The notes under the pieces: model-generated
The model's input: the letters and a program-made list of their open reading frames with translations, nothing else
Database searches by the model: none
What the model was told of the DNA's origin: nothing
Made by a program: the position numbers and the translations under genes
Shown here: positions 10,012-58,360 of the stretch, piece after piece
How the letters are laid out: each line of letters opens with the position of its first letter
Position numbering within the stretch: position 1 is the stretch's first letter
Assembly (NCBI GenBank): GCA_965217115.1
Contig: OZ244239.1
Location: forward strand, 582,392 to 646,391
Reading direction: 5' to 3'
From: Bdellovibrionales bacterium
GTDB taxonomy: Bacteria > Bdellovibrionota > Bdellovibrionia > Bdellovibrionales > CAYMLA01
Length of the DNA stretch: 64,000 nucleotides

Positions 10012-10224
10012 TTATTTTTTCTTATGATGTTTGCATTCACCTTTTTTATGGCTCCTACATTCTCTTTTTTTCTTTATTGAACAACTTTTCTTTTTGCAAA
10101 CCCCTTTATGGGAGCAACTAGCCTTGCCGTGATGACCACGCTTACCGTGATGTCCGTGACCTCCATGATGAGCACAGCTCGCTAGTAGAAAAATAAAACT
10201 TAATGCAATCATCATTGTCTTCAT
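10012..10224 (-). CDS. Small His/Cys/Lys-rich lipoprotein (candidate periplasmic metal-binding peptide)
   Basis: 70 aa with a GGGAG RBS and lipobox LLASC. The mature part is almost only H, K, G and C (HHGGHGHHGKRGHHGK...CSHKGVCKKKSCS...CRSHKKGECKHHKKK). Confidence 0.6.
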   Translation of the reverse strand: MKTMMIALSFIFLLASCAHHGGHGHHGKRGHHGKASCSHKGVCKKKSCSIKKKRECRSHKKGECKHHKKK

Positions 10225-10407: not shown

Positions 10408-10484
10408 GCAGCCGTAGTTCAACTGGATAGAGCACCAGACTTCGAATCTGGGGGTTGCAGGTTCGAGTCCTGCCGGCTGCACCA
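10408..10484 (+). tRNA. tRNA-Arg (anticodon TCG)
   Basis: GCAGCCGTAGTTCAACTGGATAGAGCACCAGACTTCGAATCTGGGGGTTGCAGGTTCGAGTCCTGCCGGCTGCACCA folds as a cloverleaf by eye, with anticodon loop CTTCGAA and an encoded CCA end. Confidence 0.9.
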
Positions 10485-10574: not shown

Positions 10575-11012
10575 ATGGCTCGAAGTATAAAATTTTTAAT
10601 AATTATTATGTTCATATATTTTTCATGTCTAGCGGAGAAAAATAAGAGCTTAGAAAAGTCATTGCCTGCTAAGCAGGATTTTAGAAATATTTTTAATTTT
10701 TTAGGCCGTGATTTTGGGTGTAGAGCCAAGCATAGTTGGATTGGAATAAAACTGTTATCAAAACACATAATTCTACTCGAAAATGACGGTGACTCAGATA
10801 CCGAATATTATAGAAGCACCTCCTATAAAAAAGGAAAATTAAGTGCTGAAAATTTTCTAGAAGGACATTATGATTATACAACAACAGTTCGTAAGTCATC
10901 ATCACATCAATCAAAAATTGAACTGAAAGGGTACAAAGACCATTTGGAATTAACAGTTTTTAAAAGAAATTCTAAAAATCAAAAAAAACTTATTTGCAAA
11001 CCAAGACTTTAA
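10575..11012 (+). CDS. Hypothetical secreted/lipoprotein (145 aa)
   Basis: A hydrophobic N-terminus ends in FSC. No family was recognised. It is the first gene of the island 3' of tRNA-Arg. The RBS is weak. Confidence 0.45.
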   Translation: MARSIKFLIIIMFIYFSCLAEKNKSLEKSLPAKQDFRNIFNFLGRDFGCRAKHSWIGIKLLSKHIILLENDGDSDTEYYRSTSYKKGKLSAENFLEGHYDYTTTVRKSSSHQSKIELKGYKDHLELTVFKRNSKNQKKLICKPRL

Positions 11013-11014
11013 AC

Positions 11015-11108
11015 CACTAGGTAGCTGACCAAATATCTGCCCAAAAAGACAATGGAAAAAGGGCCAGTTAAGTAGCTGGCCCTGCGGTTAAAAACCATTC
11101 CTTAGAAA
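11015..11108 (+). repeat. Gene-terminal repeat, copy A (~92 nt) containing hairpin GGGCCAG-N8-CTGGCCC
   Basis: It is near-identical to 12047-12138, and its first 37 nt match 13825-13861. It starts 3 nt after the stop codon of the upstream ORF. Confidence 0.85.
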
Positions 11109-11233
11109 GTGAGTTGAAACTCTCGGTTAATGGAGTTCAGTTTGTCCTTCTGGTCGAAAGTCTAACTAAAATAGAACCTTCCCCCCTCCTAGATATTATA
11201 TTATAATGTTCCTGGACAACTAGGAGGTTGTAA

Positions 11234-12028
11234 TTGTTGAGACTTAGAAATTTTTTGGTTTTTTTTATTCTTTGTTTTTTATCTCTATTTTTATTTGGAG
11301 AAAGTAAGTCCGAGGTTCTTGGGCGAGTTCTAAATCTGAACTCGTGGGATATTGGCTCTGGTTTTACTTTTGACTCAAAAGGAGGAGTTCTATTTGATAG
11401 TGCTTTGTGGACTAAAAATGGTTCGACTTATACATCAAGAAAAGAGCCAAAGGGAGTCACTTTGAAGGAGAATGGGAATAGAATAGAAATCACTCGCTAT
11501 GACGACTCTAATTATGGAAACTTTTTTAAGGACGCTTCTATAACGGTGATTTTAAATAATAAGGTTTCTTCACACACTGAAGTAAGTTTTGGAGGAGCTT
11601 ATACCGTTACTCCTCTTCTTTGTCTAACTATGGCTAAAAAGGTTGGAGCAAAAAATTTTGATGATTTAAAAGAAAAAGGTCAACACTGCGGTAAGTTAGT
11701 TGATACAATTGTTTCTAGTATATTTAATGATACTGCATTAGAACTATACACTCGTGATATTCAGAAATCTAACCTTAAGAGGATGAAGTCTTCATCTGAG
11801 ACATTATCTAAAATTGTTACTGACCGGACAGAGCGTGCTGGAAACTGGATTTTTGACAGTAAGCCTCGAGAAGGTAGATTTTTTAATAAATCCTTAGGAG
11901 GAAATGCAGGGAGAGCAGCTTCGGCGGTGTCTGAGGCTGTAGATGTCTGTAGAGCACTTTTCCCAAATTCTTTATTAAGGCCTTCTAATACAACGACTGT
12001 CCCCAATAAAAAGTCGGCTGTCAATTAG
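11234..12028 (+). CDS. Hypothetical secreted protein (264 aa)
   Basis: A TTG start sits 5 nt after AGGAGG. It has an N-terminal signal-like hydrophobic segment. No family was recognised. Confidence 0.6.
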   Translation: MLRLRNFLVFFILCFLSLFLFGESKSEVLGRVLNLNSWDIGSGFTFDSKGGVLFDSALWTKNGSTYTSRKEPKGVTLKENGNRIEITRYDDSNYGNFFKDASITVILNNKVSSHTEVSFGGAYTVTPLLCLTMAKKVGAKNFDDLKEKGQHCGKLVDTIVSSIFNDTALELYTRDIQKSNLKRMKSSSETLSKIVTDRTERAGNWIFDSKPREGRFFNKSLGGNAGRAASAVSEAVDVCRALFPNSLLRPSNTTTVPNKKSAVN

Positions 12029-12046
12029 GTGGCCTGAGCCCTGTTG

Positions 12047-12138
12047 ACTAGGTAGATGACCAATATCTGCCCAAAAAGACAATGGGAAAAGGGCCAGTTA
12101 AGTAGCTGGCCCTGCGGTTAAAAACCATTCCTTAAAAA
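12047..12138 (+). repeat. Gene-terminal repeat, copy B
   Basis: By eye it differs from copy A by about 3 substitutions and one 1-nt indel. It starts 19 nt after the stop of the 264-aa ORF. Confidence 0.85.
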
Positions 12139-12139
12139 A

Positions 12140-12652
12140 GGTTCTTTGTGATAAATATTGGTGGAGCCAGTTTTTTTCTGATGAGCCGTTTTTTTTCTAG
12201 AGTATCTCCCAAAAGACTCTAGCCCTCTTCTTGCTCAAACATCCGTTTGTCACCTTCCATTGCAGAGAAATGCAATGGAAGTCGCCAAGCCAAACTCGCC
12301 GAAAAGAACTGGACTCTTTTGGAAGATACCCTAGAAAAAAATGCCGTATTCAATCAATGAGTCAATGGATCTTTAGTGTAATATCAAAGGGAATTGTACA
12401 AAAGACTGGGAAGGCCAAAGTGTTGGTTTAGAAATAGGTCATTTATTCTGAACAAATTCGATCGAAAGTTTGAAACGAATAATAATAAACCTGGGTTGGT
12501 TTAGAAAACTGAGCTCCATTAACTAGACAGATTTCCTCTATTTCTATGACTGACCTCCATGTATAACAACGCTGTTATCCATGGATAGTTTTAAAAGAGA
12601 ACCCTCAAGATGAGTCTCTTGGGAATAGTTCCACTATTTATCACAAAGAACC
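12140..12652. repeat. About 0.5 kb non-coding segment bounded by a perfect 17-nt inverted repeat (GGTTCTTTGTGATAAAT / ATTTATCACAAAGAACC); MITE-like candidate
   Basis: The IR arms are at 12140-12156 and 12636-12652. The interior contains a perfect 11-bp hairpin (12254-12281) and only a weak 66-aa ORF. Confidence 0.35.
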
Positions 12653-12749
12653 AAACATTACTTAAAAAATCAAATTTTTACAAGAATTGTCACTGTTAAC
12701 TTTTTAAACAGAATATCTTAGTTAACTGCCTGTAACTACTATTTGAGAT

Positions 12750-12765
12750 TGGCAGTCATCTTGCT
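12750..12765 (+). promoter_or_regulatory. Sigma-54 (-24/-12) promoter candidate TGGCAG-N5-TTGCT
   Basis: It matches the consensus TGGCAC-N5-TTGCW with one mismatch and correct GG/GC spacing. It lies about 55 nt upstream of ATG 12820. Confidence 0.55.
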
Positions 12766-12819
12766 TTAAATAGCACTGATAAGCTGAATTTTTATTCACA
12801 AAACTGTAGGGTTACCGCT

Positions 12820-13830
12820 ATGAGATTTCTTATATATTTTGTGTGTGTGGTGTTAACATTGAAGGTTGACGCAAACTCAGAACTAATAATTAGTAAAAAC
12901 TGTTCTGCCATTTTTTCTAGAACTAAATTAAATATTAATAATAAGGGAGCATCTCAGCAATTTGTAGAGTCCTTAAGGAAGGCACTCTTAGAAGTAAATA
13001 ATAACTTGGATCCATTAAAACAACCTGTAGGATATCGAATTGATCTCTACAAGGCTATTAAACACACGAGTAATTATAATGGCCCATTAAATCAGTTTGG
13101 AGTAATTAGGTCGTCTGAATATTATTCAGTCATAACTAAATCAGGAAAAATGCACTCTGTTCACCCTGAGTACAGTAAGGCAATTGCTGTACATGAATAT
13201 GGGCATGAAGTTTTTGCGCAAAATATTGGGCAATATATCACAAATACGAGGGTACAAGAATTTTTCAAAGGGCGCGAATTAATATTTAAAAATCAGCAAC
13301 AAACTAGTGTACTGAGGCAAAAAATTGAAAAATTGAAAAGAGCTGGTCTTAATAATGAAGAGATTATTGAGCATCCATACTTTGTAGAATTTGTAAAAAG
13401 ACGTGACTTAATAGACAAAGGGTTAAATGCTTATTCTATAAATGAGAAACAGAAGAATATTATTATTTCTTACGATGAATTATTTGCAGATGTAATAGCA
13501 GTTATCGGTACAAATAGACCTAGAGCGGTCTATCGTGCAAACAATGCAGGAGGAAGAGGCCATACTGGTAGAGACTTTACAGCACATACACCATTAAGAA
13601 GTTGGAAGGGTGCCTCTTTGCATGAAATGTTTTCCCCTACTAGGTCACATTTATGGAAACAGTATTTGTCCCATCCAAAATTTCAGTATGAGAAACCTAA
13701 GATATTAGAGGCTTTACTAAGAGCTATTGGTAAGGAAATTGATTTTTATACTTCTATTAAATTTGTAGATTTACCACATGAAAAAAACGCCAGATTAATT
13801 GACGCTTTTGGTAGGGAATTTGAACACTAG
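12820..13830 (+). CDS. Secreted putative zinc metallopeptidase (HExxH)
   Basis: It has a signal peptide, HEYGHE at codons 125-130 (nt 13192-13209) and a downstream ELFAD (ExxxD, gluzincin-like third-ligand motif). The family is not identified. Confidence 0.55.
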   Translation: MRFLIYFVCVVLTLKVDANSELIISKNCSAIFSRTKLNINNKGASQQFVESLRKALLEVNNNLDPLKQPVGYRIDLYKAIKHTSNYNGPLNQFGVIRSSEYYSVITKSGKMHSVHPEYSKAIAVHEYGHEVFAQNIGQYITNTRVQEFFKGRELIFKNQQQTSVLRQKIEKLKRAGLNNEEIIEHPYFVEFVKRRDLIDKGLNAYSINEKQKNIIISYDELFADVIAVIGTNRPRAVYRANNAGGRGHTGRDFTAHTPLRSWKGASLHEMFSPTRSHLWKQYLSHPKFQYEKPKILEALLRAIGKEIDFYTSIKFVDLPHEKNARLIDAFGREFEH

Positions 13831-13861
13831 GTAGATGACCAAATATCTGCCCAAAAAGACA
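13825..13861 (+). repeat. Gene-terminal repeat, truncated copy C (first 37 nt only)
   Basis: CACTAGGTAGATGACCAAATATCTGCCCAAAAAGACA. The TAG stop of the metallopeptidase ORF lies inside the repeat. Confidence 0.8.
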
Positions 13862-13964: not shown

Positions 13965-14119
13965 GGTTCAAAAGTTTAAACTGAATAAAAAACTTTAACC
14001 CTACTAATTTAATTTCTTAGATTAACAGTGCATACTAAAGAAGGAGAATTATGATGAGAAAAATAGGACAAAACGAAAATGGCTCGGCGACCCTTGTCAC
14101 ATTAATGGAGAAATTATCT

Positions 14120-14731
14120 ATGAAAACATTAATTCTAATTATGGCAATATTTGTGTCTGCTCAGGCATCTGCTAATGCCCAAGTATTAACTCAGATTGTG
14201 AAGAACATAACTGGTTTGACGAGCACGGCTGGCAAGACTTCAAGGATTCAAAAAAAGGTTCTCAAAGAGTTTCTAGACCGACAGGTCATAAAAACTACCG
14301 ATGACTTTGGACGCATATCAGAAGTGAAATTTCACCAGACACTAGACGTTAAAAATCTTGAGCTTACAATGACTTCTCTAAAACCCCGTAAAAGAGCTGG
14401 AGGTCCAGATTGGACGATAAAAATCAATCATGTGGACTCTCTAGTTGAAGGGTTTAAAAAAGCAGACATTGATCGGTTGATAAAAAACTTTCTTAAAAGC
14501 AAAGGCTTAAAAGGGACACAAGTAAAAAATTCCAATCTCACAGACGTGAAGCATATGAACTATGGTATGCTCAATTATAAATTAAGCTCGCGCGCAAATG
14601 ATTCTTTTATAGAGATTGAATTAATCGATGTTAGCAGGATGTACAACCACGGGGATGTTATTGCTGGGCTTTTAGAGAAAATATCCACTAAATATCTTAA
14701 TTTTTCAAACTCAGCAGCGGCGTTGCTCTAA
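14120..14731 (+). CDS. Secreted protein of unknown function, paralog 1
   Basis: MKTLILIMAIFVSAQASANA signal peptide. The conserved GGAG lies 7 nt upstream of ATG 14120. A longer alternative start at 14051 has an AAGGAG RBS. It is homologous along its whole length to the next gene. Confidence 0.65.
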   Translation: MKTLILIMAIFVSAQASANAQVLTQIVKNITGLTSTAGKTSRIQKKVLKEFLDRQVIKTTDDFGRISEVKFHQTLDVKNLELTMTSLKPRKRAGGPDWTIKINHVDSLVEGFKKADIDRLIKNFLKSKGLKGTQVKNSNLTDVKHMNYGMLNYKLSSRANDSFIEIELIDVSRMYNHGDVIAGLLEKISTKYLNFSNSAAALL

Positions 14732-14801: not shown

Positions 14802-14936
14802 AACGAGGTAAATAATTGATCCCCAGCCGACAAGGCGAGAAGACCATGGCGGGGTCACTTTGCAGCGCCTAAAATGGCACCTGTCTCAAATATCTACAGC
14901 CAAAAGGCCTTAACTCTCTTAAGTGGCATTCTAACA

Positions 14937-14952: not shown

Positions 14953-15015
14953 CTAATAGTGGAGTGAAATGACGTGAAGTCATTGGAAATAAATCAAACG
15001 ATGGAGAAAATATCT

Positions 15016-15609
15016 ATGAAAACATTAATTCTAATTATGGCAATCTTTGTATCTGCTCAGGCATCTGCTAATGCCCAAGTATTCACTCAGATTGTGAAGA
15101 GCACGATTGCAAGTCCAAGGATTCAAAAAAGGGCTACCCAACAGTTTCTAGACCGACAAATAATAGACATTGTCGATAACTTTGCAGGCATATTATTAAA
15201 AGTGGATTTTCACAAAACACTAGGCGTTAAAAATCTTGAGCTTACAATGCTTTCTCTAAAAGACTATAAAAAAGGTGCCGCTTCAGAATGGAAGATACAA
15301 ATCAAGCATGTGGACTCTCTGGTTGAAGGCTTTAAAAGAGCAGACATTGATCGGTTGATAGAAGATTTTTTTAAAAGCAAAGGTTTAAAATGGACACTCA
15401 TTAAATTTCCCAATAACATAATCGAGAAACATATAGACTCTGGCATGCTCAAATATAGCTTCAGCTCGTCCACCAATGACTCTGTTATAAATATTCGATT
15501 AATCAATGTTAGCTCGCAAGACGCCTACCAAACTATTATTACTGAACTCTTACAGAAAATATCCACTAAATATCTTAATTTTTCAAACTCAGCAGCGGCG
15601 TTGCTCTAA
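15016..15609 (+). CDS. Secreted protein of unknown function, paralog 2
   Basis: It has the same signal peptide and an identical C-terminal KISTKYLNFSNSAAALL as paralog 1. The ORF track starts at GTG 14974. Confidence 0.65.
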   Translation: MKTLILIMAIFVSAQASANAQVFTQIVKSTIASPRIQKRATQQFLDRQIIDIVDNFAGILLKVDFHKTLGVKNLELTMLSLKDYKKGAASEWKIQIKHVDSLVEGFKRADIDRLIEDFFKSKGLKWTLIKFPNNIIEKHIDSGMLKYSFSSSTNDSVINIRLINVSSQDAYQTIITELLQKISTKYLNFSNSAAALL

Positions 15610-15632: not shown

Positions 15633-17141
15633 ATGCGTCGTTATTCATCTGCTCTCTGGCTTTTTTCTTTGTTTCAAATATTTTTGGTTGGAAACACTTA
15701 CGCCGATCAAGTATCTTTAGATCAAAAAATTGATTTCTTAATTCGTCAAAAATCCTTTTTTACATTACTGAAAAATGTCAATCATCAGCATCTCTCCCGT
15801 TATCAAAAATGCCTTCAGAATCCAGAAGAGGATTTTACCATTACAGTTATCGGGGAAAATGCTCAAATGAAAGATTACACTCGTCCATGCAAGAAATTGA
15901 TCAAAATTCGTTTTAGAAGGTCCTTTCGGCTACACTACGAAAAAATGAGACTCTACCTTGCATTGAGCAAAACAAGGTACAGAGAATCCCCAGAAATAAT
16001 GTCTCAATCCAATAATATTGATCATAAACTCAATAGAGATATCTCACACCCATCATTTCTTGCCTACTTAGGGTTTAACTATCAACCTATGGATTTATCT
16101 CCTTTATCTGAAAGTGAAACGCGTAAAGCTCTAGATATGTACAGTCAAGACACAAAAGATTTTTGCATAAAATATAAAGAAAACCATTTGGATAAGAGAT
16201 TATATTTTCTAAAAAATGAAACTGATAAAAAACACTTAAAAGAACGGTTTTGTGAAGAATCTCTATTAAAAATCAGCAAAAACCTTGGCCATACAAAATT
16301 CGAAAGAGCCTCGAATCAATTAAATCTAGAGCAATTAAATAGAGATTACCATCGTTCAATAGAATATAACCGAGACAAACTAAGGGCTACATACAAGGGG
16401 CTCTATGAACAAACTATTTCAAAATACCCACTTCTGATATATGGAAAAACAGCTCACCCCACCAACAGGGAGTTATTAGATATTCTAGAGAAAATATCGA
16501 TGCACAATACTGCATTTAATATTAAGGTTGAAGATTATATCGTTGAAAATAACTTAGAGACTGAGATTAATAGTTTTCGCCAAGGCTTGCATAGTCCTAA
16601 GGAAAAAGAGGCCTTATTCGAAAACCTCCTTTTCTTTTTAAAAGAGGGTATTTTTAATGCCTATATGACTAAATACACACTGAACTCCCAGGATTCAGAG
16701 AAAATAAAAGAACTCGTTAAAGAGAAGAAAGAAACCATACAAAGAACAAATATGTTTAAGAGCCTGGGGCTTTTATCAGTTGCCCTTGGTAGTTGCTTTT
16801 TGCCTATTGGAAAAATTATTAAAGTGGCTCAAGTGGCTAAATATATAAAATTAGGTTGCTTTGTCTCTCTTGGAATACCGTTAAATCTATATTTTTTAAA
16901 CATCGCTTATCATGACTTTAATGACGGCTTGTCAGATGTCTTTTCCTCCCCTGATGGAGAGTATATTTTTGGTGATTTTCAACAACTCTCTAGCCATTAT
17001 CAAATGATTGTTTTAAATACGCTTCTGCTTGGTGTTGGGATTGGTCCCATCAAAGAATTTGTCTCTATAACCAAACAGGCGGCCATCCTTAGAAACCCTC
17101 TAAGAGAGAAGAAAAAAAACCTTGATAGATACCTCAATTGA
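15633..17141 (+). CDS. Hypothetical protein with N-terminal signal peptide and C-terminal TM helices (about 502 aa)
   Basis: ATG 15633 has a GGAGA RBS. The body is long and K/E/N-rich and probably helical, with 2-3 hydrophobic helices near the C-terminus. No family was recognised. Confidence 0.6.
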   Translation: MRRYSSALWLFSLFQIFLVGNTYADQVSLDQKIDFLIRQKSFFTLLKNVNHQHLSRYQKCLQNPEEDFTITVIGENAQMKDYTRPCKKLIKIRFRRSFRLHYEKMRLYLALSKTRYRESPEIMSQSNNIDHKLNRDISHPSFLAYLGFNYQPMDLSPLSESETRKALDMYSQDTKDFCIKYKENHLDKRLYFLKNETDKKHLKERFCEESLLKISKNLGHTKFERASNQLNLEQLNRDYHRSIEYNRDKLRATYKGLYEQTISKYPLLIYGKTAHPTNRELLDILEKISMHNTAFNIKVEDYIVENNLETEINSFRQGLHSPKEKEALFENLLFFLKEGIFNAYMTKYTLNSQDSEKIKELVKEKKETIQRTNMFKSLGLLSVALGSCFLPIGKIIKVAQVAKYIKLGCFVSLGIPLNLYFLNIAYHDFNDGLSDVFSSPDGEYIFGDFQQLSSHYQMIVLNTLLLGVGIGPIKEFVSITKQAAILRNPLREKKKNLDRYLN

Positions 17142-17199
17142 ATGAAATACTATGACAGCCTTGATGGATGCGCTAGTTATTAACTACGAGGGGATCTAA

Positions 17200-18414
17200 A
17201 TGAAAAAAATATTGAATGTGTTTGTAATCTTAATCACCCCTTTGTTCAGCGCCCTACTTACCTCTGCAAGTGACCATGTCGATGGACCTGTCACTAAGGA
17301 GCATCGTGTCGCCGATATTAGTGACTTCTATGTCTTTCAATCACCTGGGAACAAGAACAACACAACCATCATAATGAACACCTATCCGTTTGTAGGGAAA
17401 TCTGGGCATTTCTCAAATAAGGTGACATATGAGATTCATATCATTAACCTCAATATTAATAAATCAACGGGGATTTTTGATAAAAAAGAAAAAGCTAAGA
17501 TCGTGTGTGAATCAGTCACCCCACATTCTTCTCGTGAAGATCACTCCCTCTCTAAAATAACTTGTACCGATACGAAGGGAAACAAATCAATCGCCACCCT
17601 CAATGCTAGCCCAAAAAGTAATTTCAATAATCATAAAAATAATCATTTCCCTATTTTTGCAGGTAGAAGGCTTGATCCATTCTTTATCGATACCAAGTGG
17701 GCCACAGAAACAAACAATAGTGGAAAAATTAGCCCCTCTTCTGGAGGTGACAATGACATAGAAGATTTAAATGTCCTTAGCATTGCAATTGACATTAACT
17801 TAAAAGATCTCTTTGGTCATACTTCGTCAAAAATCTATGGCTTCTATGTAGAGTCACTAACACAAGACTCCCCTGGATCTGTAAAGAGAATCCTCGACAG
17901 AGTCGGGCGGGCAGAGATAACAAACTTCGCCATAAACCAAAAAACAGTTCCAGATATTAGAGACTCCTATAACCAAACCGATACTCTTAATATTCCACCG
18001 AGAAAGAAGAAAGAAATCCTTGATAGACTCCTCAATCAGATAAAATACTATGACAACCTTGATGGATACACTGACTGGAGTAAGAGCGAGCAACAACATC
18101 TTGCGAATATTTTTATAGATGATTTTCTTGTCATTGACCTGTCAAAACCCTGTTCTGGTAACGGCTTCTTGGAGATAGAGAAATCACTCATTGCAGGGAG
18201 GCCCCACGAAACATGTGGAGGAAGAAAGCTCACTGACGATATTGTTGATCGTATTTATACATATTATATATCCAAGGATAGAAAAGAATATGGCGACTCT
18301 GTTAATACCCCATCCAAATCTTTTGGAAAAAGCTTTCCCTACCTAAACACGCCAGCAACAGGAGTCTGGGCTTGGATAAAAGCTAAATTTGCATACAAAA
18401 AAGCAAACTTTTAA
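17200..18414 (+). CDS. Secreted DUF4331-like protein
   Basis: A signal peptide is followed by SDHVDGP...VADISDFYVFQSP, resembling the SSHREAP...D.TD.YAF.SP N-terminus of DUF4331 proteins. GAGGGG RBS. Confidence 0.55.
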   Translation: MKKILNVFVILITPLFSALLTSASDHVDGPVTKEHRVADISDFYVFQSPGNKNNTTIIMNTYPFVGKSGHFSNKVTYEIHIINLNINKSTGIFDKKEKAKIVCESVTPHSSREDHSLSKITCTDTKGNKSIATLNASPKSNFNNHKNNHFPIFAGRRLDPFFIDTKWATETNNSGKISPSSGGDNDIEDLNVLSIAIDINLKDLFGHTSSKIYGFYVESLTQDSPGSVKRILDRVGRAEITNFAINQKTVPDIRDSYNQTDTLNIPPRKKKEILDRLLNQIKYYDNLDGYTDWSKSEQQHLANIFIDDFLVIDLSKPCSGNGFLEIEKSLIAGRPHETCGGRKLTDDIVDRIYTYYISKDRKEYGDSVNTPSKSFGKSFPYLNTPATGVWAWIKAKFAYKKANF

Positions 18415-22946: not shown

Positions 22947-23828
22947 TTATTTCTGCTCTGACTCCACATCTAAGCTAGATAACGGATGAAACTCATCAAT
23001 CGTCTGTTTCATTTTCTCCGTTGTTACGCTCGTGTAGATTTGGGTGGTCTGAATATTAGCATGCCCCAAGAGCATCTGAATAGAACGGAGGTTAGCACCA
23101 GACTCCAATAACGCCGTCGCACAGCCATGACGAAATTTATGGGGACTTATCGGTATAGATAAACCCGCCTCTTTCGACCAAGAAGAGAGCCATCGCCATA
23201 TATCCGTGCGACTAGGCCGCTTACCCCGATCATTTAATAAAACAGCATCTGTCCCTGTTTTTAACAAATGGGGGCGGACCTCTTTAAGGTACGTAACAAA
23301 CTCTTCCATCAAGCCTTCAGTCAACGGCACTAAACGCTCTTTTTCTCCCTTACCAAGAACCTTTAACCACCCATCAGTATGGCTAAAAGAAGAGAGATTT
23401 AAATCAATCAACTCCGTCACGCGACAGCCCAATCCATAGAGTAAAAGCAATGTGATTTTATTACGAGCTGTTTTAAATATATCTTTGACCTCACAGGCCT
23501 CGTAGAGCTTTTTAAAATCATCCATTGTAATAGGCTTCGGTAGGGTGGCTTGAATACGGGGAGACTTTAAATCCCTTAATTCAGGCGTTTTTTTACCACG
23601 GCTCTCTAAAAATTTAAAATAAGTCCTCAAGCTACTAATAACCCTCGCCTGAGAGCGGCTCGACAACCCCTGTTCCCCCATGAATTGATAAAAACCAAGA
23701 ATATCTTGGGGCTTCCCATACTTAACGAAAAGTCCCAAATCCCTTCGATAGGCCATGACTGTATTGCGAGAGCGTCCACGAACATTTTCTAAATCATCAA
23801 AAAAATCTGCCCATAAAATTAAGCCCAT
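22947..23828 (-). CDS. xerD: Tyrosine site-specific recombinase, XerD-like
   Basis: NTVMAYRRDL (XerD-type), catalytic region ...PHKFRHGCATALLESGANLRSIQMLLGHANIQTTQIYTSV. Confidence 0.75.
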   Translation of the reverse strand: MGLILWADFFDDLENVRGRSRNTVMAYRRDLGLFVKYGKPQDILGFYQFMGEQGLSSRSQARVISSLRTYFKFLESRGKKTPELRDLKSPRIQATLPKPITMDDFKKLYEACEVKDIFKTARNKITLLLLYGLGCRVTELIDLNLSSFSHTDGWLKVLGKGEKERLVPLTEGLMEEFVTYLKEVRPHLLKTGTDAVLLNDRGKRPSRTDIWRWLSSWSKEAGLSIPISPHKFRHGCATALLESGANLRSIQMLLGHANIQTTQIYTSVTTEKMKQTIDEFHPLSSLDVESEQK

Positions 23829-58181: not shown

Positions 58182-58360
58182 ACACAACGGGCGATGGGGA
58201 TTCAAAGCATTCTCTCCATAAGGTTTAATTATTTTAAACCTTTACCATGTGCTGCTCAGCGTTATTTCTAAAACACAACGGGCGATGGGGATTCAAAGCA
58301 TTCTCTCCATAAGGTTTAATTATTTTAAACCTTTACCATGTGCTGCTCAGCGTTATTTCT
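58182..58360. repeat. Perfect tandem duplication of an 88-nt unit (58182-58269 and 58273-58360, 3-nt spacer AAA)
   Basis: Compared base by base; the two copies are identical. It lies in the divergent intergenic region between the dehydrogenase remnant and manC. Confidence 0.97.

Follow-up and report, generated by a model that had tools for sequence, protein, structure and literature searches.

Neisseria Correia elements and pneumococcal RUP are TA-duplicating MITEs of the IS630/Tc1-mariner type, and mobile insertion cassettes (MICs) consist of IS-type inverted ends around passenger genes, with no transposase. Insertion of IS630/Tc1-mariner elements takes place at TA and is accompanied by TA duplication (PMC2170065); IS630 favours TA within CTAG according to Tenzen & Ohtsubo 1991, as cited by PMC2170065. 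The attC sites of integrons comprise R″/R′ boxes with conserved AAC/GTT pairing ends as well as L boxes, and the whole site forms a hairpin with extrahelical bases (PMC4889954). At least two attC sites are the criterion for a CALIN, and an integron integrase nearby that for a complete integron.

The window, as the whole 64-kb stretch of DNA analysed is called here, comes from a predatory, Bacteriovorax-like bacterium. An initial annotation had proposed a family of structured repeats attached to the 3′ ends of three of its genes. Like bacterial MITEs, this repeat is small, non-coding and sharp-ended, lies beside gene ends, is predicted to form hairpins in transcripts, has flanking TA dinucleotides that may mark a CTAG-type target and is associated with strain-to-strain rearrangement; a complete unit with long imperfect terminal inverted repeats is present in a related strain (L018). 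Unlike them, it has been found at only four loci, all in one island, and no partner transposase was seen; the window copies are direct and have no second end, the end of the 88-nt form falls on an internal point that is used repeatedly, and the terminus carries stops in three frames. All in all the repeat looks most like pieces of a miniature transposable element of a familiar sort, and not like new biology.

Repeat copies at gene ends of a variable island

A low-GC variable island occupies about 10.5-18.4 kb of the window, with the GC content falling from 42-45% to 35-36%. Its left edge is formed by tRNA-Arg(TCG) (10408-10484, plus strand; ARAGORN, Rfam). The repeat has no similarity to the 3′ end or flank of this tRNA gene, and a tRNA-derived att site was therefore rejected. 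Three plus-strand genes are associated with the repeat. The first, g1 (10575-11012, TAA stop at 11010-11012), is an orphan ORF of 145 aa whose N-terminus is hydrophobic; it belongs to no Pfam or NCBIfam family and its only homologue is encoded on a related-strain contig. The second, g2 (11234-12028), is an orphan ORF of 264 aa; its N-terminus resembles a signal peptide, and it evolves fast (88% amino acid identity between strains). The third, g3 (12820-13830, 336 aa), has no Pfam family and is 40% identical to a homologue in Bacteriovorax sp. BSW11_IV; its signal peptide and HEYGH (HExxH) motif, read from the sequence, make it a putative secreted metalloprotease. Promoter-like sites were found just upstream of g1, g3 and g4, and none above the scan threshold upstream of g2. 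Downstream of the repeats no minus-strand gene is encountered in the window before 18.4 kb.

The long form of the repeat (about 88 nt) is represented by copy c1 (11015-11104, plus strand), flanked by TA at 11018-11019 and by TA at 11103-11104 followed by G, and by copy c2 (12046-12133, plus strand). They are 96.6-97% identical over 88-89 nt, which bears out the near-identity claimed for them. The short form, c3 (13825-13861, plus strand), consists of the 5′ module only and agrees with c1 at 36 of 37 positions. The positions given for the copies in the initial annotation held to within 1-4 nt. With respect to stop codons, c1 starts 2 nt past the TAA of g1, c2 starts 17 nt past the TAG of g2, and c3 encloses the TAG of g3 (13828-13830), a stop codon that comes from the repeat itself. 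Just 6 nt past c2 lies an unrelated MITE-like insertion of 513 bp (12140-12652, no strand assigned) with 22-nt terminal inverted repeats, which is missing in related strains.

All three window copies lie within 3 kb in direct orientation, and none was found in the other 61 kb. Neither half of the element had another match in the window with up to 3 mismatches (100 shuffles gave 0 matches), and nhmmer --max profile searches, run with the full element and with the 5′ module, detected no weaker copies in the 64 kb. The proteins encoded by g1, g2 and g3 show no detectable similarity to one another, so that the copies do not belong to a segmental duplication taking in coding sequence; this explanation was excluded with the 161-aa protein of contig L016 also included in the comparison. 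The claim of a true repeat family at the 3′ ends of unrelated genes stands, and the repeat in the window is shown to be real and sharp-ended. In genome, metagenome, viral, plasmid and phage collections the repeat gave chance 19-mer matches or nothing, and homologue searches with g1, g2 and g3 together with cluster look-ups led to no further copies beyond those on the related-strain contigs L016/L017 and L018. The lineage is sparsely sampled, to the extent that even its housekeeping proteins fall into 90% clusters with a single member.

Modular structure and predicted folding

The repeat is bipartite, with a 5′ module that contains stops in three frames and a 3′ module with a strong hairpin. 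In c1 the 5′ module (11015-11051, plus strand; from sequence reading and folds) has one stop per frame, TAG at 11018, TAG at 11022 and TGA at 11026, and a weak inverted repeat GGTAGCT (11020-11026)/ATCTGCC (11035-11041). The 3′ module (11051-11099, plus strand; from folds and strand scans) is predicted to form an outer stem AATGG (11051-11055)/CCATT (11095-11099) that encloses a hairpin at 11061-11082, composed of GGGCCAG (11061-11067), the loop TTAAGTAG and CTGGCCC (11076-11082). The corresponding GGGCCAG-N8-CTGGCCC hairpin of c2 is predicted at 12091-12112, and the nesting of this hairpin within the AATGG/CCATT pairing, as originally described, was predicted by folding at both long copies. 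With -20 kcal/mol it is the most stable 3′-flank hairpin among the 60 window ORFs checked. The 88-nt form by itself shows no convincing terminal inverted repeats.

On the plus strand the stem is followed by the tail TGCGGTTAAAAACC, which has no U-tract, in keeping with the earlier statement that the copies are not classical sense-strand terminators. That the element lacks a U-tract is correct for this strand only; on the minus strand the hairpin is succeeded by the T-run TTTTTCCATTGTCTTTTT, with TTTTTCC directly after the hairpin of c1, and a terminator-like site was called by the scan at 11083-11060. Covariation, which had been suggested as a check of the structure, was seen at 0 of 26 pairs among copies that are too few and too alike for it, with invariant stems. 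In Rfam 15 only three tRNAs of the window reached the gathering score, with nothing over the repeats at E<=10.

The 37-, 88- and 173-nt forms have no coding capacity: they contain only ORFs of 21-29 aa, whose frame is shifted by a 1-nt indel between copies, and a search with the ORF peptide returned nothing relevant. A minus-strand small protein or type I toxin of 29 aa was rejected because a 1-nt indel alters its C-terminus between copies, the ribosome-binding spacing is unusable and the sole database match is an irrelevant tandem-repeat ORF. Stop-codon read-through, SECIS and PYLIS elements were discarded as well, since the frame of the gene relative to the module varies among the copies; a DGR, a CRISPR and a riboswitch were dismissed on the grounds of no reverse transcriptase, wrong spacing and no Rfam match.

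Haplotypes of closely related strains

The window was compared with two ENA contigs of closely related strains, L016/L017 and L018. The DNA to the right of c2 differs in all three haplotypes, beginning 0-3 nt beyond the 3′ end of the repeat, and the end of c2, CCATTCCTT (12125-12133), is the breakpoint among them. Four different right-hand partners follow CCATTCCTT (those of c1, window c2, L016 c2 and L018 c2); no cryptic repeat homology was found in these partners, and the opposite ends of the rearrangements are free of the site. Since the other junction partners have no repeat homology, homologous recombination between repeat copies was rejected as the cause of the breakpoints. The initial annotation had listed three possible roles with no preference: REP/BIME-like mRNA stabilisation or insulation, a 3′-UTR-derived sRNA, and recombination sites shuffling the upstream ORFs as cassettes. 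The last of these is upheld in its link with rearrangement and not in its choice of genes, as it is the downstream neighbour that changes.

A fourth copy, c4, occurs in L016 and L018, where it runs opposite to c1 and c2 of the same contig. Its homology extends over about 43 nt, versus 37 nt in c3, which rules out a shared cut base for the two short copies. A unit of 173 nt is made up in L018 by c2 and, in inverted orientation, c4; its 43-nt arms are 86% complementary and lie 87 nt apart, and the predicted fold has -80.7 kcal/mol (z = -11.3). The unit reads TA-GGTAGATGACC...GGTCATCTACC-TA and is flanked outside by C and G, from which the empty site GAC-TA-GTC, containing CTAG, can be reconstructed. 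Between these inverted ends, c2 and c4, L016 carries 3.5 kb of DNA with genes for a 674-aa protein, an 82-aa protein and a trypsin-like protease and without a transposase, and L018 represents the empty version. Such inverted ends around three passenger genes resemble a MIC; alternatively, the 3.7-kb unit of L016 may reflect an insertion or deletion in a small element that was already in place. The next gene of L016 begins 42 nt past the element.

The repeat copies are 97-100% identical between strains, as against a difference of 5-6% in the adjacent coding sequence of g2. The block encoding the 309-aa and 161-aa proteins is 99.8% identical between L016/L017 and L018, compared with about 95% for the g2 block. 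Gene conversion between copies is hinted at by the 5′ module of c1 in L016, which bears the variants of c2.

Origin of the repeat

The same sequence is fused to unrelated genes at four independent loci (c1, c2, c3 and c4), and the similarity among them begins at [C/G]AC-TA-GGTAG. In c3 and c4 the TAG of the gene is composed of the target TA and the first G of the terminus. The flanks of c1 (TA...TA-G) allow an empty site CCAC-TA-GAAAG, again containing CTAG, to be reconstructed; c2 is flanked by TA...TA-A in the window and by TA...TT-G in L016 and L018, with TT instead of TA at the right. The TA/CTAG flanks, together with the inverted configuration in the related strain, point to a miniature transposable element. 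The explanation that we tentatively prefer, while giving it somewhat less than an even chance, is that the repeats represent a MITE-like element specific to this lineage, together with fragments of its left end, and that insertion took place at TA/CTAG within stop codons or directly behind them.

A small non-coding element of the TA-duplicating IS630/Tc1-mariner type would, according to this explanation, have inserted at TA within (A)CTAG, in or directly past the stop codons of genes of the hypervariable island. The 5′ module would be its terminal repeat, in which TAG-TAG-TGA would halt any entering reading frame, and the 3′ module its subterminal sequence with the strong hairpin. As the 5′ module begins with G, insertion into the TA of a TAG or TAA stop would restore TAG. 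Transposition would presumably have depended on a transposase whose gene lies elsewhere or has since been lost, none being encoded in the 64-kb window. Terminal inverted repeats are present in the L018 unit, and c1, c2 and c3 have no inverted partner in the 64 kb, so that every window copy would be half an element; these halves may derive from later rearrangements, or the 88-nt form may itself be mobile. Effects on the upstream mRNA, such as a 3′ hairpin or antisense insulation, would be a by-product, as in other bacterial MITEs. Several observations fit less well with a mobile element. The TA lies within the region of similarity (the arms in L018 include GACTAGG/CCTAGTC), and it could hence belong to the repeat and not to a target duplication. 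Simple decay would not be expected to leave c1 and c2 with an identical last base, as is the case. Target choice alone does not account for the position at gene ends of 4 of 4 copies, when, of the other 28 non-coding CTAGs in the window, only 5 lie at a stop or within 25 nt past it.

If a MITE-like origin is correct, the repeat constitutes a new family of small mobile repeats from a predatory bacterium that has barely been sampled, able to occupy a stop codon without lengthening the protein while adding a hairpin to gene ends. It would also mark the points at which a strain-variable island of secreted-protein genes is rebuilt, an island holding a putative HExxH protease and, in the sister strain, a trypsin-like protease. 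This would be of use for island annotation and for the study of strain variation in the predator; it opens no long-standing question.

Another reading is a cis-acting element of mRNA 3′ ends, comparable to REP, ERIC or Correia sequences, in which the three-frame stops would hold ribosomes back from a stable stem-loop, the stem-loop would set or protect the 3′ end of the upstream transcript, and the element would be passive in rearrangement. The orientation of the repeat always equals that of the upstream gene, including c4, whose gene is read in the other direction from g1 and g2 of its contig, and its hairpin is the strongest 3′-flank hairpin in the window. Between strains c1 has three adjacent loop changes (TTAAGTAG to TTTGATAG) with 10 of 10 stem pairs kept, the sole outer-stem change converts G-U to A-U, and both stem changes of c4 maintain pairing. 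Such a role is nevertheless rather improbable, given that c3 and c4 lack the hairpin, none of the 26 pairs has compensatory changes, Rfam gave no match, the start of the next L016 gene at 42 nt suggests read-through, and spread to unrelated genes with base-exact ends is left unexplained. With REP/BIME elements the repeat shares an intergenic hairpin immediately 3′ of genes, a GTAG motif beside the stem and possibly the character of a hot spot for rearrangement and insertions (the 513-bp MITE-like element is 6 nt away). It differs from them in its two-part structure, with a non-palindromic 5′ module that can stand alone; no RAYT-type gene was seen, and the short imperfect palindromes that typify REP/BIME, dispersed over many intergenic sites and often in inverted pairs, were not found within the 64-kb window. 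The GC-rich 7-10 bp stem near a stop codon likewise recalls intrinsic terminators, but the sense strand has no U-tract, the marginal T-run is on the strand opposite to the gene, and clear U-tracts are present at canonical terminators in other parts of the window. That the 3′ module is instead a minus-strand intrinsic terminator, shielding the island genes from antisense or convergent transcription, agrees with the T-run after the hairpin, with the site called in c1 and with the L018 position, which fits the expected terminator of the convergent 161-aa gene. We regard this as the most improbable of the readings: c2 fails the scan, having TTTT then CCC, the terminator-like sites of the region number 7 versus 6.6 expected by shuffles, the first minus-strand gene downstream is reached only at 18.4 kb, and neither the 5′ module nor the sharp ends are explained. 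The restriction of the copies to 3 kb of the window, the presence of other local duplications in the island (the g4/g5 paralogues) and the signs of gene conversion would be compatible with a neutral relic: a short piece of non-coding DNA, immobile and without function, that illegitimate recombination or gene conversion had multiplied locally. This too is very unlikely when the junction with four unrelated genes falls on the same base beside their stops, c4 is opposite to c1 and c2 on one contig, one 3′ boundary recurs whether paralogous or orthologous copies are compared, and the element is more conserved than the adjacent coding sequence.

Next in probability to a MITE-like origin, although still unlikely, is a cassette composed of a promoter, a single gene and the 88-nt site, exchanged at the 3′ end of the site by a recombinase encoded elsewhere, in a non-attC analogue of the integron. 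Several features recall attC/CALIN arrays (PMC4889954): the repeats are co-oriented with the genes and lie 0-17 nt past the stops of unrelated orphan ORFs, the array content is strain-variable, and the three haplotypes diverge at 0-3 nt beyond the 3′ end of the site. Promoter-like sites directly upstream of g1, g3 and g4, the different histories of the modules (309aa-161aa versus g2 block) and the position of the low-GC island next to a tRNA gene also speak for cassettes. The repeat itself differs from attC in having no R/L boxes and no conserved AAC/GTT triplets (the 5′ module of c1-c3 has no AAC), its 5′ and 3′ ends pair in no fold of either strand, and the genes have their own upstream regions, unlike those of attC/CALIN arrays. 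Only two sites are complete, the rearrangement far ends have no copy, and the two breakpoints do not coincide but lie 1-3 nt from each other. The sole recombinase of the 64 kb, a tyrosine recombinase at 22947-23828, is XerD-like (272.6 bits) and scores 93.6 bits with the integron-integrase model against a cutoff of 265. An integron attC site or CALIN was ruled out by the repeat structure and the absent integrase. The fuller proposal, that the 88-nt form is the site of an undescribed Bacteriovoracaceae cassette system in which secreted-protein genes are swapped beside a tRNA gene by crossover at its 3′ end, is quite improbable; it is only under this minority reading that the repeat would be of wide interest, as the system would diversify the secreted arsenal of the predator. 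It counts for cassettes that a relative (L008) possesses a true attC-type array with the same spacing, 0-21 nt from stops, 1.7 kb from the g3 homologue; this array looks quite unlike the repeat, and its attC-like site folds end-to-end.

Structure and location of the repeat

Two long copies of the repeat (c1, 11015-11104; c2, 12046-12133), identical at ~97% of positions, and a short one (c3, 13825-13861) matching the first 37 nt only (36 of 37 positions identical to c1) are located behind genes of a tRNA-adjacent island. Neither half of the repeat was matched at ≤3 mismatches in the remainder of the window or in any of 100 shuffles, and nhmmer profiles (--max) detected no weaker copies in the window; the three-copy family described in the initial annotation is thus real. 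Scans of collections of genomes, metagenomes, viruses, plasmids and phages returned at most isolated 19-mer matches attributable to chance. This lineage has hardly been sampled: even for SHMT and the Band-7 protein, its sequence is the sole member of a 90% cluster.

The three copies are found in a region of low GC content (35-36% vs 40-48% in the 2-kb windows leftward) which starts immediately after tRNA-Arg(TCG) (10408-10484). The genes preceding c1, c2 and c3, designated g1 (145 aa), g2 (264 aa) and g3 (336 aa, with a HEYGH motif), encode products with hydrophobic N-termini. None of them belongs to a Pfam or NCBIfam family and no mutual similarity was detected among them, which excludes a duplication including coding sequence, the outcome that had initially been named as refuting a repeat family. 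Homologue searches left g1 and g2 as orphans; a homologue of g3 (40% identical) encoded by Bacteriovorax sp. BSW11_IV places the source among Bacteriovorax-like predators.

The first part of the repeat (5′ module) reads (C/G)AC-TA-GGTAG(A/C)TGACCAA(A)TATCTGCCCAAAAAGACA; its initial TAG, TAG and TGA provide a stop in each of the three reading frames, and a weak inverted repeat of 7 bp (GGTAGAT/ATCTGCC) is also present. The second part (3′ module), AATGG-A5-GGGCCAG-TTAAGTAG-CTGGCCC-TGCGGTTAAAAA-CCATT-CCTT, is predicted to form a hairpin on both strands in RNA and DNA folding alike, with z-scores for the long copies from about -0.9 (RNA, minus strand) through -2.0 (RNA, plus strand) to -3.3 (DNA). 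No Rfam family matched the repeat.

Haplotypes of related strains

Two contigs of one ENA assembly, L016 (analyzed also in reverse complement as L017) and L018, come from close relatives. L016 is 98.9% identical to the window between 9108 and 12133, with c1 and c2 present, diverges directly past CCATTCCTT and resumes the match at 14807. The intervening genes encode a 674-aa and an 82-aa protein, a trypsin-like protease, and proteins of 161 and 309 aa; the TAG of the 161-aa gene falls within c4, the fourth occurrence of the 5′ module, which is oppositely oriented and more strongly diverged. A (CAATAG)5 microsatellite (L017, 2143-2172), which could be a contingency (phase-variation) tract, lies ~30 nt upstream of the protease gene. 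L018 carries a different allele of g2 (88% aa identity) and lacks the 3.5 kb separating c2 and c4, the breakpoint being at CCATTCCTT(TGT).

The right-hand neighbour of c2 is therefore different in each of the three haplotypes, and all three neighbours begin 0-3 nt beyond the point where similarity between c1 and c2 also stops. Since no homology to the repeat was found among the other junction partners, plain homologous recombination between copies fails to explain these junctions. Between strains c2 is conserved at 98.9-100%, against 5-6% divergence in the coding sequence of g2; in c1 three adjacent hairpin-loop positions are changed and the stem is unchanged. A 513-bp MITE-like insertion (12140-12652) starts 6 nt past c2. 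Its terminal inverted repeats are 22 nt long (GGTTCTTTGTGATAAATATTGG, 95% complementary), and a further inverted repeat of 41 nt lies in its interior; it is missing from the sister strains and has no second copy in the window.

Possible origin of the repeat

In L018 the inverted c4 lies 87 nt from c2, and their 43-nt arms are 86% complementary. The resulting 173-nt unit (fold of -80.7 kcal/mol, z = -11) reads TA-GGTAGATGACC...GGTCATCTACC-TA between outer flanks C and G, so that its removal leaves GAC-TA-GTC, containing CTAG. At all four loci C-TA directly precedes GGTAG, and the right side of c1 is followed by TA-G. Insertion at TA, with duplication of that dinucleotide, is characteristic of the IS630/Tc1-mariner family, IS630 itself having a preference for TA within CTAG (PMC2170065). 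Insertion of the repeat in this manner would join the target TA to the first G of the terminus, creating TAG, which would explain both the stop codon "inside" the repeat and its base-exact ends. On this view L016 looks like a unit of the L018 type to which passenger genes have been added, and L018 like its miniature version without them.

The closest known kind of element is the small TA-duplicating bacterial MITE, exemplified by Correia and RUP, with L016 as a passenger-carrying variant. A MITE-like origin is the favoured reading, but only tentatively, at somewhat less than an even chance, on account of several observations. In the window the three copies share one orientation and lack an inverted partner, and would thus be left-end halves; the end base shared by c1 and c2 does not fit; the TA may be repeat sequence and not target; and the right flank of c2 in the sister strains is TT. 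Moreover, of the window's 28 other non-coding CTAGs, just 5 coincide with a stop or are close to one, so target choice alone does not yield insertion at gene ends in four cases of four and must be supplemented by selection or function. That the repeat is a cassette recombination site, as initially proposed, is a live but less likely rival: the exchange of sequence at the end of c2 in every haplotype speaks for it, but attC and integrase features are missing. Unlike in attC, the two ends of the repeat fail to pair, AAC/GTT triplets are absent, and no integron integrase was found in the window, hence an integron attC site was rejected. A role as an mRNA 3′-end element, the other live rival, is somewhat less likely still. 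The hairpin (-20 kcal/mol) is the most stable among the 3′ flanks of 60 window ORFs; the covariation test supported 0 of 26 pairs, the copies being few and near-identical. The repeat was not assigned to the REP/BIME family on present evidence, nor to sense-strand terminators, as the U-tract is indeed absent on the gene strand. On the opposite strand the earlier no-U-tract claim does not hold, the hairpin being followed by TTTTTCCATTGTCTTTTT and listed as a terminator-like site (11083-11060) in a scan which gave no excess of sites in the region over shuffles (7 vs 6.6).

An array which looks like an integron attC array, quite different in appearance from the window repeat, is present in BSW11_IV (AUNE01000050.1, 12748-20688), 1.7 kb from the g3 homologue. 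Small co-oriented genes (beta-lactamase fold, acetyltransferase, SocA_Panacea, orphans) precede its 5-6 copies, with 0-21 nt between stop codon and copy; the best one (18040-18104) is a 65-nt near-perfect palindrome, GCTCCAAC...GTTGGAAC (-30 kcal/mol).

Other features of the window

The remainder of the window comprises housekeeping genes, with no transposase. The sole recombinase (22947-23828, minus strand) is a 293-aa XerD-like tyrosine recombinase adjoining a ComM-like Mg-chelatase gene; XerD is its best match, at 272.6 bits, below the equivalog cutoff of 329.6. Within the island, g4 and g5 (14051-14731 and 14974-15609) are tandem paralogues that share 61% aa identity and are almost the same in their signal peptides and C-termini; a single copy is present in the sister strains, in which the upstream region of g5 is joined to a coding sequence resembling that of g4. 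An 87-nt direct repeat (78% identity) has one copy extending from the end of g6 into the spacer between g6 and g7 (17088-17174) and the other within g7 (DUF4331; 17986-18072). A 70-aa ORF (10012-10224, minus strand) with a lipoprotein-like signal sequence matches no family, its mature part being nearly all His, Gly, Lys and Cys. A toxin-antitoxin pair (295-895; Gp49/HigB-like toxin, HI1420-type antidote) adjoins tRNA-Met (2192-2268), and a perfect 88-nt direct duplication (58182-58360, copy starts 91 nt apart) is intergenic, upstream of the mannose-1-phosphate guanylyltransferase gene in a low-GC polysaccharide cluster.
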